Program-made: the position numbers and the translations under genes
Source of the DNA: an uncultured Gammaproteobacteria bacterium
Lineage (GTDB): Bacteria > Patescibacteriota > Microgenomatia > Levybacterales > UBA12049
DNA length: 55,611 nt
Assembly (NCBI GenBank): GCA_964515545.1
Contig: CAZERI010000002.1
Location: forward strand, 1 to 55,611
Reading direction: 5' to 3'
Shown: positions 48,017 through 50,854 of the stretch, one piece after another
Layout: every line of letters begins with the position of its first letter
Position numbering within the stretch: position 1 is the first letter of the stretch
Notes under the pieces: model-generated
The model's database searches: none
What the model was told of the DNA's origin: nothing
The model's input: only the letters and a program-made list of their open reading frames with translations

Positions 48017-48934
48017 TTACTCTTTACTTAGTATTTTAATAAAGTCATTTTTGAATTCCTCTTCACTTATATATTCCACAACTGTGGTGTTGGGTCTACT
48101 TTGTGGTTTGGTACGTAAGTCAGCGACTGTCATTCCTCTTGTAAGTCTACCTTTAGTTTCTATCGCAATATTACAGTTATACACATTCGCAATTTTTGGG
48201 TTAATTAAGTAATACACAGTTAAAGGATCATACATCATAGCAGCTTTTACACCTTCATCCTTAGCAATATTATTGATATAGGGCTTAATCATTTTTAGTA
48301 ATACCGCTCGAAGCGACGAGTTTTTAATCGCCTTAAAGTCGTTAAGTGACAATCTAACATGGTTACAAGCATCTAGTGGTACAAGAATTTTATTGATGGG
48401 AAAGGAAAATACAACATCTGCTGCCTCTGGATCAACAAAGATGTTAAATTCTGCAACACGATTTTTATTACCAGGCACTTTTACTGCTCCTCCCATAATG
48501 ATTATTTTCTTCACTTTCATCATCGTTGCGGGTTCTTTAAGGATTGCCTGTGCAATATTGGTTAATGGGCCAAGAGCAACAATAGTCACTTTATTGGGGT
48601 TCATTTTTACAATTTCTAATATTCGTTCTACTGCATTATCTGTAAGCATTGGTTTATTGGCAGGGTCAATACCATCAAGTCCGCTTTTTCCGTGGACGAC
48701 AGCTTGTATTAATGGTCTCTTTAAAGGTTTTCGAGCTCCTGAAAAAACGGGTATATCACTTCTGTTGAGTACATTAAGCACGAAACGAGCATTTCTCGTT
48801 GTATTAGCGATAGTAGAGTTACCACTGACGGTAGTTAGGGCTTGAATATCAAACAGATTACTTTTTACAGCCAGCATTATAGCCATGACATCATCGTGTC
48901 CCGGATCCGTATCAATTATTATTTTTTGCTTCAT
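48017..48934 (-). CDS. Nucleoside hydrolase (IU-NH family)
   Basis: DTDPGHDD Ca-binding motif, VHG.SG, GPLTN, AEFN..DPEAA, PLD. Confidence 0.93.
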   Translation of the reverse strand: MKQKIIIDTDPGHDDVMAIMLAVKSNLFDIQALTTVSGNSTIANTTRNARFVLNVLNRSDIPVFSGARKPLKRPLIQAVVHGKSGLDGIDPANKPMLTDNAVERILEIVKMNPNKVTIVALGPLTNIAQAILKEPATMMKVKKIIIMGGAVKVPGNKNRVAEFNIFVDPEAADVVFSFPINKILVPLDACNHVRLSLNDFKAIKNSSLRAVLLKMIKPYINNIAKDEGVKAAMMYDPLTVYYLINPKIANVYNCNIAIETKGRLTRGMTVADLRTKPQSRPNTTVVEYISEEEFKNDFIKILSKE

Positions 48935-49602
48935 ATAAATCCCTCCTTTTTCAATATGTTAATTGCTGATTTTACATTTTTCGTTTTATAGTCAGCGGTT
49001 GTGTTTTCGTTAGATCCAACTAATATAGTTTTCATACCAATGCTTTTTGCAGGAAGAATATCTGAGTATTCCTGGTCACCAATCGAAAATACATTTCCTG
49101 GAGGAACACGTAAATCATTCGCAATCTTTCGAAATACGACAGGGTTTGGTTTCCTTTCATCTGGTTCACCTGTATACAGCTTTCCTTCAAACATCCTATC
49201 AATATCCAGATATGCCAAAACATTTATAGCCCACACTCTTGGTGCTGCTGTTAAGAGTGCAATGCGTCCCTTTAACTGTTCAAGCATTTCTGGTAAGTCT
49301 GGATCCTTCTCAATATAGTCATTTGGATTGAGATTCCATGTGCTATCAAAATAATCATACCTATCTATTCCGTATTCCTTCTCTACTCCTAGACTTACCT
49401 CTCCATCATATTTGTCTTTTATCCTTTCATATTCAGACAAGGCTTCATCTCTTGATAACCCACGTCTCTCCATGAAAAAGCCATAGACATTGCTTCTCAG
49501 GTCAGTATAGAAACGTGACGCTGTAAAGGTTTGTCCTTGCCCTTTGTCAAAGTGATAGAGAGTACCATCCATATCAAAAATAAATCTATATTGTTCTTTC
49601 AT
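48931..49602 (-). CDS. HAD-superfamily hydrolase, probable nucleotidase
   Basis: FDMDGT, LTAA, KP, IGD...DI; start ATG 49602 (ORF-track ATG 49629 lies in terminator loop). Confidence 0.88.
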   Translation of the reverse strand: MKEQYRFIFDMDGTLYHFDKGQGQTFTASRFYTDLRSNVYGFFMERRGLSRDEALSEYERIKDKYDGEVSLGVEKEYGIDRYDYFDSTWNLNPNDYIEKDPDLPEMLEQLKGRIALLTAAPRVWAINVLAYLDIDRMFEGKLYTGEPDERKPNPVVFRKIANDLRVPPGNVFSIGDQEYSDILPAKSIGMKTILVGSNENTTADYKTKNVKSAINILKKEGFI

Positions 49603-49614
49603 AGTTTTTACCAC

Positions 49615-49639
49615 AAAAAAACCTCCCATGTGGGAGGCC
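49615..49639 (-). terminator. Intrinsic terminator inside the leader of the HAD/nucleoside hydrolase operon
   Basis: GGCCUCCC-ACAU-GGGAGG followed by U7, ending 12 nt upstream of ATG 49602. Confidence 0.85.
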
Positions 49640-49665
49640 TATTTCTGTCGAATATGTTACCAACA

Positions 49666-49731
49666 TCACGACAAAAGATCCTCCCGAAGAGGTTCTGTAT
49701 GATGCCAATTAAACAAATTTGCGTAGTTCAT
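49666..49731 (-). CDS. Putative 21-aa leaderless leader peptide MNYANLFNWHHTEPLREDLLS
   Basis: ATG exactly 7 nt after extended -10; ORF spans attenuator segments 1 and 2. Confidence 0.55.
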   Translation of the reverse strand: MNYANLFNWHHTEPLREDLLS

Positions 49732-49738
49732 AAAATTT

Positions 49739-49747
49739 ATTATAGCA
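49739..49747 (-). promoter_or_regulatory. Extended -10 promoter (TGcTATAAT) within a TATAGCA-N6-TGCTATA inverted repeat (49741-49760)
   Basis: Direct reading of sequence. Confidence 0.7.
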
Positions 49748-49823: not shown

Positions 49824-50027
49824 TCATGAATCTTTTTCATAGTCTTCTAAAAATTTGATTGCTTCATCAAGAGTATTACATTCAGATTCAGGAACTATAT
49901 ATCCAACTCCATCTCGATTAGAAAGCTTTCTTTCTCTTTGAGTATTAAAGACATAAAAGCCTTGCTCCGTTTGAATAATATCGAACCAATATTTCTTAAT
50001 AAACTTAGTTTTAACAATTGTATGCAT
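49824..50027 (-). CDS. Hypothetical 67-aa protein
   Basis: ORF track; starts 2 nt after upstream gene stop. Confidence 0.6.
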   Translation of the reverse strand: MHTIVKTKFIKKYWFDIIQTEQGFYVFNTQRERKLSNRDGVGYIVPESECNTLDEAIKFLEDYEKDS

Positions 50028-50029
50028 AA

Positions 50030-50740
50030 TTATTTTTTCTCACCTTCAAATTTTAGATATTCAACAAACTTATCAACCACTTTCCATGTCTTCATCATAA
50101 TATCAACACGCTTTTCTCCCAAAACAGATTTATATTCACCGTGACGCTGACCTCCTCCAGAATTTTTAATTTCATTTACATCGGCTTCATTTAATCCCAA
50201 AATTCTTATAGTATCCTTCCATCCTTTAGCCTTATTACCAGACGTCATGAAATGTTGCATTATAGTTTCAGTTGCCCTCCTACAATGAAAAAACGTATCA
50301 AAGGGACGTTTAATAGCGTCTCTTAAATCCTTCAATACCATATAAAGCTTAGGGTGCTTTAGAGCAAGTAACAGTGTGTCGTGGTAATTTAAAGGTCTAT
50401 TCTTTTCATCTTCTGTTATTTTGATCACATCAATCCCGAAAACTTCATTTTCTTGCGTTTCTGGTATATAAACAGAGTGCAATTCTACAGAATAGGCATA
50501 GCCCTTTAGATAACCGTAAACGTCAACCATAGTATAAACAAAATTTTCTACCGTATTTCTAAGGTCAACTGTGGATAATTTCATATCTGTATCAAGTTCA
50601 ACTACTACTTGAGACAGTTTGATAGAAACTTTTACCGTTCCTTTAAAAGGAGAATCATCTGCTCCAACTTCTGCAGAAATATCAGAAATTGTTAGAGTTG
50701 CTCTTTCGGGTTGTACCTTACCAAAAAAAATATATTTCAT
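50030..50740 (-). CDS. Hypothetical 236-aa protein, beta-rich N-terminus and helical C-terminus (possibly HEPN-like)
   Basis: ORF track; AT-rich; C-terminal QRHG; immediately 3' of tRNA-Gln. Confidence 0.7.
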   Translation of the reverse strand: MKYIFFGKVQPERATLTISDISAEVGADDSPFKGTVKVSIKLSQVVVELDTDMKLSTVDLRNTVENFVYTMVDVYGYLKGYAYSVELHSVYIPETQENEVFGIDVIKITEDEKNRPLNYHDTLLLALKHPKLYMVLKDLRDAIKRPFDTFFHCRRATETIMQHFMTSGNKAKGWKDTIRILGLNEADVNEIKNSGGGQRHGEYKSVLGEKRVDIMMKTWKVVDKFVEYLKFEGEKK

Positions 50741-50780: not shown

Positions 50781-50854
50781 TGGCTGCCAGGCTTGGATTC
50801 GAACCAAAATAAACGGATTCAGAGTCCGTTGTCCTACCATTAGACGACCTGGCA
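50781..50854 (-). tRNA. tRNA-Gln(CUG), 74 nt, CCA encoded
   Basis: Acceptor TGCCAGG/CCTGGCA, D-arm GTC/GAC, anticodon arm ACGGA-CTCTGAA-TCCGT, T-loop TTCGAAT, G73 and U1-A72. Confidence 0.97.

Follow-up and report, generated by a model that had tools for sequence, protein, structure and literature searches.

On the minus strand of a 55,611-nucleotide (nt) stretch of DNA (contig CAZERI010000002.1; the window), an operon encoding a HAD-type nucleotidase and a nucleoside hydrolase is preceded by a short leader that is probably a ribosome-mediated transcription attenuator of the trp/his type, built on a leaderless peptide and controlling both genes, with the stall most likely arising from slow decoding of His and Trp codons. 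This layout had been proposed in a first-pass annotation of the window, and its components are all present: a conserved open reading frame (ORF), a codon cluster, exclusive helices that share one RNA segment (segment 3) and an adjacent terminator. The features concerned are as follows.

49747-49739, minus strand: extended -10 element TGcTATAAT (TGCTATAAT), from the sequence
49666..49731, minus strand: 21-codon leader ORF (uORF), MNYANLFNWHHTEPLREDLLS followed by UGA (stop 49668-49666), from the ORF list and the sequence
49699..49707, minus strand: regulatory codons UGG CAU CAU (W9 H10 H11), the proposed stall site
49709-49659, minus strand: hairpin P1 (anti-antiterminator), ~22 base pairs (bp), from the minimum free energy (MFE) fold
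49692-49689, minus strand: segment 1, CCUC
49685-49680, minus strand: segment 2, GGGAGG
49637-49632, minus strand: segment 3, CCUCCC
49627-49622, minus strand: segment 4, GGGAGG
49632..49685, minus strand: antiterminator 2:3, GGGAGG (49685-49680) with CCUCCC (49637-49632), extended by UUUUGUCG/CGACAGAA
49615..49640, minus strand: intrinsic terminator 3:4, AGGCCUCCC-ACAU-GGGAGGUUU followed by U7
49621-49615, minus strand: U7 tract, with the HAD ATG at 49602 being 12 nt further
49612..49627, minus strand: segment 4 GGGAGG doubling as a putative Shine-Dalgarno (SD) sequence, plus an in-frame GUG (49614-49612) 7 nt after GGGAGG
48931..49602, minus strand: HAD-IA phosphatase gene, the first regulated gene (Pfam HAD_2/Hydrolase)
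48017..48934, minus strand: inosine-uridine-type nucleoside hydrolase gene, the second regulated gene (RihA/RihC-like; Pfam IU_nuc_hydro, 291 bits)

The -10 element, the ATG, the 21-codon ORF, segments 1 to 4, the U7 tract and the 12-nt gap were each found where the first-pass annotation had located them, with AAATTTT (7 nt) between the -10 element and the uORF ATG at 49731. The complementarity behind the internal pairing that it had described is also real, as UUUUGUCG (49676-49669) matches CGACAGAA (49650-49643) on the minus strand. The 1:2 hairpin is present, yet its description was incomplete, since in the MFE fold the pairing of segment 1 (CCUC) with segment 2 (GGGAGG) is only the tip of the ~22-bp hairpin P1. 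In the lower stem of P1, UUGGCAUCAUACAGAA is paired with UUUUGU.CGUGAUGUUGG; the 5′ arm comprises the UGG CAU CAU codons plus ACAGAA, and the 3′ arm (UUUUGU.CGUGAUGUUGG) carries the uORF stop. The antiterminator is mutually exclusive with both P1 and the terminator. The fold of the 132-nt leader has an energy of -40 kcal/mol (z = -3.4 against dinucleotide shuffles), and a terminator scan detected a 9-pair hairpin plus T-run at 49640-49619, with a hairpin energy of -14.1 kcal/mol. No second copy of the leader was found in the window.

Related loci (designated by L numbers) were gathered from GTDB genomes, JGI metagenomes and Logan/ENA contigs, and the leader was searched for in them by BLASTN, nhmmer and, later, a covariance model. 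These loci are related by descent, so that a count such as 18/18 does not stand for 18 independent trials; what is independent are the roughly five word variants (below) and the different leader types. The leader precedes orthologous HAD plus nucleoside hydrolase operons in at least 19 distinct metagenomic loci, among which the identity of the HAD protein to that of the window ranges from 81% to 46%. It lies directly upstream of the HAD-hydrolase pair in the window, L084, L083, L001, L003, L085, L090, L087, L089, L004, L010, L005/L006, L008, L088 and L009; in L086 an AstE/AspA-like gene, and in L029 and L024 an uncharacterised gene, stands between the leader and the pair. Members outside its seed were recovered by the covariance model, namely L024 (48 bits) and L013/L018 (27.5 bits, E = 0.007). 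Because the genes upstream of the leader vary between loci (and are often divergent) while the link between leader and operon stays, the leader travels with the operon. The comparison of orthologous operons suggested by the first-pass annotation therefore found the same leader, with its uORF, W-H-H-type codons and helices kept; three of the four outcomes that this annotation had listed as speaking against an attenuator can be computed, and in all three these elements proved to be conserved.

A leaderless start of the uORF, proposed from the window, would fit the relatives too. Of 19 related leaders, 15 have retained the TGn-extended -10, and in 16 the end of the -10 is 6-9 nt away from the uORF ATG that follows; as a control, a -10 of similar quality 5-9 nt before an ATG was found for 0.9% of all ATGs in the window. 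No SD sequence was found before the uORF ATG of the related leaders. The conserved spacing is consistent with a leaderless transcript that begins at the start codon, and the predicted transcription start is the A of the uORF AUG or a directly neighbouring nucleotide.

The uORF is conserved as a reading frame. From the equivalent ATG, an ORF of 14-25 codons is open in every related leader (26 distinct peptides), and the stretch from the ATG to the Trp codon differs in length by 0, ±3, +6 or +9 nt, all multiples of three. In L004, one base gained before CCUC is compensated by one base lost after GGGAGG, which restores the frame and the stop position and leaves TNTSTGGI in the middle of the peptide in place of TEPLREDL. 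Such a pair of indels is hard to explain at the RNA level because it unbalances the helix, but is easily explained if the reading frame matters. The stop is UAA at the same place in L010 and UAG one codon earlier in L090, and in the core group it lies 43-48 nt from the U-run. The amino acids encoded by the N-terminal codons vary, as is expected of a leader peptide.

What is conserved in the peptides is a cluster of His and Trp codons. No residues are rarer in the local proteome than these two (His 1.6%, Trp 0.8%), and relative to it they are enriched 7.3- and 6.5-fold and occur in 26/26 and 24/26 leader peptides, respectively, while Tyr and Asn are enriched by 1.4-1.5-fold only and Asp is depleted to 0.07-fold. 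The motif takes the forms WHH, WYH, WHY, WYYHH, HYHLWYY, NHWYH, LHH and MHH. Among 4028 small ORFs of the fetched loci, W[HY][HYC] or [HY]W[HY] is present in 39, of which ~30 are the uORF before the operon. The W/H/Y codon cluster is located 12-19 nt before segment 2, and its distance to the stop varies from 0 to 14 residues. Codons of the W-H-H type, whose conservation the first-pass annotation had proposed to test, are kept even in lineages with different stem sequences (L009, L013-L018, L012 and the L027 group); since the motif survives such changes of stem, the translated His/Trp cluster appears to be the sensor, with the output platform varying around it.

The helices are likewise conserved. 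The terminator is kept in all relatives, with compensatory changes, and segments 2, 3 and 4 change together across lineages:

Most loci: segment 2 GGGAGG, segment 3 CCUCCC, segment 4 GGGAGG
L088: segment 2 AGGAGG, segment 3 CCUCCU, segment 4 GGGAGG
L029: segment 2 GGGAGG, segment 3 CCUCCU, segment 4 AGGAGG
L009: segment 2 GGCGG, segment 3 CCGCC, segment 4 GGCGG
L013-L018: segment 2 GGCUGGUU, segment 3 AACCAGCC, segment 4 GCUGGUU

Segments 2, 3 and 4 are swapped as whole words in L009 and L013-L018, and single-base compensation is seen in L088 (as A-U) and L029. In each word variant, a perfect complement of segment 3 is located at leader index 46-49. An upstream perfect complement arises in ~1% of shuffles for 5-6-mers; the shuffle p is about 0.011 for L009 (index 48) and about 0.00025 (0.025%) for the 8-mer of L018 (index 49). 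When the core was held fixed and the flanks were shuffled, the mean z was -1.8 for the antiterminator (negative in 17/18 loci) and -2.1 for P1 (negative in 15/18), so that both helices gain pairing from their flanks; the tip helix of P1 is retained by RNAalifold. The best conserved part of the leader is the strand CUUUUGUCGUGAU, which includes the last uORF codons; its conservation is explained by the need to pair with two partners.

To represent the translating ribosome, transcripts cut just before segment 4 were folded with a 31-nt footprint forced single-stranded. With the Trp codon or either of the following motif codons in the A site, segment 3 paired with segment 2 in 18/18 loci; with the stop codon in the A site, 2:3 pairing was prevented in 14/18 loci, including the window. 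When the full-length leader was folded free of any footprint, the terminator persisted in 18/18 loci. The switch claimed in the first-pass annotation, in which segment 2 is free during a stall at W9-H10-H11 but covered once the ribosome is at the stop, holds in these constrained folds.

The proposed course of events is as follows. Driven by the TGn-extended -10, transcription would start at the AUG at 49731 or immediately beside it, and a ribosome would load on this 5′ AUG and translate the 21 codons. If it passed W9-H10-H11 undelayed, the ribosome at the UGA (49668) would cover segment 2 together with the shared strand UUUUGUCG, segment 3 would pair with segment 4, and transcription would terminate at U7, 12 nt before the HAD start. 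If no ribosome were loaded, the long P1 would sequester segment 2 and termination would again result. A ribosome held at the Trp/His codons would instead melt the 5′ arm of P1 by its footprint and leave segment 2 free; segment 2 and its flank would then pair with segment 3, no terminator would form, and the polymerase would read through into the HAD and nucleoside hydrolase genes. The antiterminator would also leave the GGGAGG of segment 4 single-stranded, as a possible ribosome-binding site. The P1 tip, CCUCUUCGGGAGG followed by AUCUUUUGUC (49692-49680), was flagged as terminator-like in a pattern scan. By analogy with the 1:2 hairpin of trpL, the P1 tip plus the U-rich stretch could be a site where transcription pauses and the ribosome is able to catch up.

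As to what delays the ribosome, slow decoding of the His and Trp codons, caused by low levels of charged tRNA-His and tRNA-Trp, is the most likely signal, and would make the leader a starvation switch for nucleotide breakdown and for the salvage of ribose and bases. The sequences favour this signal over a nascent-peptide sensor and over a sensor of nucleoside triphosphate (NTP)-dependent polymerase speed, because, of the codons, only those for His/Trp are kept and the stretch between them and the stop may vary in length. A stall at residues that are used less than any others in the proteome could act as a general sign of starvation. In yeast, the homologous Phm8 (a HAD nucleotidase) and Urh1 (a nucleoside hydrolase) are induced by starvation, for the salvage of ribose (PMC4039369). 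This pair is the best parallel for the output logic, and for the output logic only, as yeast is a eukaryote that uses kinase signalling and has no attenuator there.

Several points weigh against this interpretation. Each leader has only 2-3 regulatory codons, and in three loci Leu or Met replaces Trp. These codons do not match the function of the operon (nucleotidase plus nucleoside hydrolase), so that the link between the two is an argument and not an observation; to our knowledge, Patescibacteria, to which the host belongs (below), are generally held to lack amino-acid biosynthesis. We know of no demonstration of leaderless translation in this phylum, and a low-depth contig (49716-49866) from an RNA-labelled wastewater run crosses the predicted start, although it could represent DNA or read-through from upstream. 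The assembled contigs of this run, the only RNA-labelled one, are uninformative, and a search for RNA runs of the relative L003 returned none. On the structural side, the column-wise covariation of 2:3, computed on a MAFFT alignment of the GGGAGG-type leaders, does not exceed that of shuffles (91% paired, one compensatory pair), given that the words hardly vary and that divergent members are aligned out of register; the evidence for 2:3 is the word swaps and the flanks. In L005, L008, L088 and L029, which have longer uORFs, the stop is 16-20 nt beyond segment 2 and a ribosome there does not mask it, so that in these four loci the 1:2 tip would have to re-form behind the ribosome. Finally, the equilibrium fold of the whole leader under the stall mask replaced the terminator in half of the loci only (9/18, the window not among them), which is why cut transcripts were used. 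As the equilibrium fold keeps the terminator in the window, the model needs a kinetic order in which 2:3 forms before segment 4 is synthesized. Dependence on the order of synthesis is usual for classical attenuators.

Among the alternatives, it is possible, though unlikely, that the W-H-H/H-W-H nascent peptide arrests the ribosome only with a bound small molecule (a nucleobase, a nucleoside or a metal ion), on the model of TnaC with tryptophan and SpeFL with ornithine. A motif of aromatic plus imidazole residues is conserved across different RNA contexts, His and Tyr interchange within it, and W9 is 12 residues from the last residue, as in TnaC, where the spacing runs from W12 to P24; a nucleotide-derived ligand would, moreover, suit the operon better than an amino-acid signal. 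However, there is no peptide-level conservation outside the 2-4 residue motif, while the arrest peptides known to us need longer conserved stretches, and the free distance between motif and stop (0 to 14 residues) also argues against arrest. The PLREA stretch is accounted for by the RNA hairpin, as L004 keeps the hairpin yet shifts the frame, and the exchange of His for Tyr is a single C-to-U change that still keeps pairing with G. If true, the peptide would be a sensor of nucleotide catabolism in Patescibacteria that requires neither protein nor riboswitch. In a milder variant, the combination of His and Trp, the two amino acids whose synthesis consumes phosphoribosyl pyrophosphate (PRPP), would report on PRPP or ribose status.

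It is quite unlikely that the ORF is incidental and that P1 is instead bound by a ligand or an RNA-binding protein (for example, a PyrR-like one of phosphoribosyltransferase fold), which would stabilize the anti-antiterminator. The three-hairpin layout is the same as in the Bacillus pyr attenuators, the nucleotides of P1 are highly conserved, and the gene after the leader in L029/L024 encodes an uncharacterised protein with a motif (DDTSFSGST) that resembles a PRPP loop, while a distant relative is encoded after the hydrolase in L087/L088/L090. Such a model would leave unexplained that the AUG stands at a fixed distance from a conserved promoter, that the ORF is always open, with indels in multiples of three and one compensated frameshift, and that the His/Trp codons are kept where the stems differ; furthermore, no riboswitch or PyrR family of Rfam matches the leader, even at E up to 10, and the operon of the window has no gene for a PRPP-loop-like protein.

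A very unlikely third possibility is that coupling speed is read out as in pyrBI, the polymerase (its speed set by NTP pools, with a pause at the conserved CUUUUGU after the P1 tip) racing the ribosome and W-H-H calibrating the timing. An NTP signal would be logical for a nucleotide-degrading operon, the P1 tip with its U-rich stretch is flagged as terminator- or pause-like (49692-49680), and CUUUUGUCGUGAU is the best conserved strand of the leader, yet the pairing of this strand with two partners already explains its conservation and enrichment of His/Trp is not needed for such a device. In addition, the uORF ends 28 nt before the terminator stem, and therefore the ribosome cannot block the terminator directly as in pyrBI. 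That there is no regulation at all, with the hairpin plus U-run being a constitutive terminator or stabilizing the mRNA of the upstream gene, and with chance accounting for the repeats and the small ORF, is hardly credible: a low-depth RNA-labelled contig does span the predicted promoter and the fold of the window does keep the terminator at equilibrium, but the leader accompanies the HAD-hydrolase operon behind unrelated, often divergent genes, its promoter, uORF, motif and three matching words are all conserved, and a constitutive terminator 12 nt before a promoterless operon would silence it.

A further idea, that the leader responds to queuosine through the His, Tyr, Asn and Asp codons read by queuosine-containing tRNAs, with salvage by the hydrolase, was rejected, given the depletion of Asp (0.07-fold) and the enrichment of Tyr and Asn by 1.4-1.5-fold; the RihA/RihC-like hydrolase likewise offers no specific connection to queuosine.

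Several gene contexts touch on tryptophan and PRPP. In L086 (1130-4579), the leader is followed by four genes on the same strand, for an AstE/AspA-like deacylase, the HAD protein, the nucleoside hydrolase and trpS (tryptophan-tRNA ligase; TIGR00233, 305 bits), and a family-3 glycosyltransferase (TrpD/AMP-phosphorylase-like) is encoded just upstream; only the L086 operon includes trpS. An uncharacterised protein with a PRPP-binding-loop-like motif (example, ILVIDDTSFSGST) is encoded between leader and HAD gene in L029 (940-1653) and L024 (720-1466), and a distant relative of ~300 amino acids (aa) is encoded 3′ of the hydrolase gene in L087 (3768-4670), L090 (2216-3133) and also L088. The two protein types are weakly similar to each other (E = 0.002), and neither has a significant match in Pfam or NCBIfam, the L090 protein having a sub-threshold match to Pribosyltran (E = 0.11).

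Variant leaders were found in other loci. In L013-L018, the uORF reads MTKFSNQVWHHQLN* and the stems are built from GCUGGUU/AACCAGC (for example, L018:2344-2475), with the uORF stop of L018 falling between segments 1 and 2. In L012 (2406-2500), the uORF MNYILSLFSYHWHY* is followed by AU-rich sequence with no clear terminator. A second leader type occurs before more distant HAD genes (46-48% identity) at the following positions:

L027:159-225, second-type leader
L034:162-240, second-type leader
L035:2419-2503, second-type leader
L032:494-590, second-type leader
L042:118-209, second-type leader
L043:1155-1238, second-type leader

Its uORF ends in ...L-M-H-W-H(-Y/L-N)*, encoded by the palindromic AUGCAUUGGCAU, and its 9-bp hairpin, UAGUGGAAA/UUUCUACUA, contains the uORF stop and ends 2-4 nt before the HAD AUG, with no U-tract. 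The second type is probably a translational version of the same His/Trp sensor.

A translational layer may also exist for the main type, in which segment 4 has the sequence of a strong SD, a point that the first-pass annotation had not noted. An AUG or GUG directly follows the U-tract in 16/18 leaders, 7-8 nt from segment 4. This start is in frame with the HAD gene in nine loci, of which six (including the window, where GUG 49614 gives a 4-codon extension of the HAD protein) add 3-4 codons, while in L089, L010 and L008 it is itself the first start of the long ORF. In five loci a mini-ORF of four codons begins there, its UGA overlapping the main AUG (AUGA), and in two the AUG or GUG is neither in frame nor the start of a mini-ORF; as the frames differ between loci, a uniform N-terminal extension was rejected. 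L009, where segment 4 is not SD-like, and L088, where an SD follows the U-tract, have a separate GGAG/GGAGG between U-tract and AUG. From these arrangements we infer that the terminator hairpin would hide the ribosome-binding site and the antiterminator would expose the SD of segment 4, which would add translational control to the output of the terminator. Gene callers place the HAD start within the terminator for P0001 (232 aa, at ATG 49629) and P0002 (at the equivalent ATG) and at the GUG after the U-tract for P0003 and P0017; most HAD orthologues begin at the MKEQ... ATG (223 aa).

The element has the structural features of trp/his attenuators and belongs to no Rfam leader family. With Rfam 15 at gathering thresholds, nothing but a tRNA was matched in the window. 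The best sub-threshold match on the leader was Phe_leader (25.8 bits against a gathering threshold of 55; E = 0.054), largely carried by the terminator, which also drives a weak match to RNAI; under permissive filters (E up to 10), no riboswitch, T-box or PyrR element of Rfam was detected on the leader. Literature searches returned no paper linking Patescibacteria with leader peptides or attenuators.

The E. coli trp attenuator (trpL) likewise has a short ORF with regulatory codons near segment 1, four segments that pair either as 1:2 plus 3:4 (terminator) or as 2:3 (antiterminator), and, immediately ahead of the first structural gene, a GC-rich hairpin with a U-tract, and its stop between segments 1 and 2 is matched in the L013-L018 variant. 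In contrast to trpL, the leader described here is predicted to be leaderless, with no SD before the uORF, combines one Trp codon with His (or Tyr) codons, precedes nucleotidase and nucleoside hydrolase genes rather than trp biosynthesis genes, and has a segment 4 that is also a putative ribosome-binding site; there is no sequence similarity between the two and no match to the Rfam Trp_leader family. It is of the same attenuator class as hisL and the Phe, Leu and Thr leaders of Rfam, with His codons as putative stall sites, but has 1-3 His codons, compared with seven consecutive ones in hisL, and an operon of unrelated function. Attenuation before genes of nucleotide metabolism and a three-hairpin logic are shared with the pyrBI/pyrE leader peptides and Bacillus PyrR, yet there is no PyrR-binding loop here and the genes are catabolic, not biosynthetic; the pyrBI mode is not applicable, as the uORF stops short of the terminator. 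TnaC, like the window peptide, is a short leader peptide whose conserved Trp stands 12 residues from the end, but it stalls at the stop codon and blocks Rho, whereas the terminator here is intrinsic; its Asp16 and Pro24 have no counterpart and the distance between motif and stop is variable here. Mycobacterial polycysteine small ORFs (sORFs) are attenuators of leaderless design, which work at the level of translation and respond to cysteine (Canestrari et al., bioRxiv 10.1101/834739). There the leaderless sORF is the first cistron, as is predicted for the window, and stalling at a codon cluster remodels the downstream RNA and controls the operon, as is proposed here; they differ in unmasking a ribosome-binding site, and in serving cysteine metabolism, where the main output of the window leader would be an intrinsic terminator and its codons are His/Trp. 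The second leader type (L027 group) may be closer to the mycobacterial design.

The regulated genes form a stable pair, present in all loci examined. The HAD phosphatase is closest to pyrimidine 5′-nucleotidase (SDT1/PHM8 type), its best NCBIfam match being TIGR01993 with a score under the cut-off, and the nucleoside hydrolase, whose start overlaps the HAD stop (ATGA), has RihC/RihA as its best NCBIfam and PDB matches. One assembly of the same organism, represented by L093 (1696-2620), has the hydrolase gene in two pieces, of 183 and 91 aa, reflecting either a frameshift or an assembly error. Further 3′ on the same strand are genes for DUF1697, two RibD_C proteins and an FNR-like reductase. 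The 5′ neighbours of the leader are tRNA-Gln(CTG) (50781-50854) and, between the two:

49824-50740, minus strand: two ORFs (236 and 67 aa)

Neither ORF has a match in the Pfam scan, and the 236-aa product is DUF8168 in a precomputed Pfam annotation. In L083, a close relative, an interval of ~130 nt that holds no other feature separates the same tRNA-Gln from the leader downstream of it, and the ORF pair therefore resembles an insertion beside the tRNA gene. In L003 (88-1741), nine tRNA genes (Arg, His, Arg, Lys, Leu, Val, Phe, Gly and Gln) lie 630 nt upstream of the leader. The remainder of the window is housekeeping: FtsEX, TsaE, Sua5, sugar-nucleotide enzymes, SUF, PFOR, SecD, the CCA-adding enzyme, RecJ and two tRNA ligases.

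The label of a genome like those of the candidate phyla radiation (CPR), given in the first-pass annotation, holds. A protein search returned 159 homologues of the HAD protein, the named ones being from metagenome-assembled genomes (MAGs) of Patescibacteria, and the glutamyl-tRNA synthetase (GluRS) of the window is ~65% identical to proteins named from Levybacteria and Roizmanbacteria MAGs. Judged from these similarities, the host of the operon is a member of the Patescibacteria with a Microgenomates-like genome. Metagenomes of activated sludge and wastewater commonly contain this organism.

Next to nothing is known about gene regulation in CPR bacteria, which are uncultured and have tiny genomes with few recognisable regulators. 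The leader would be a clear, conserved cis-regulatory device in these bacteria, and would extend classical attenuation in three ways: by a leaderless peptide, by mixed His/Trp codons and by a catabolic target. Being small (117 nt) and self-contained, it can be tested without culturing the host. If the starvation reading is true, the speed of translation would gate the salvage of ribose and bases in organisms that live as nucleotide scavengers.

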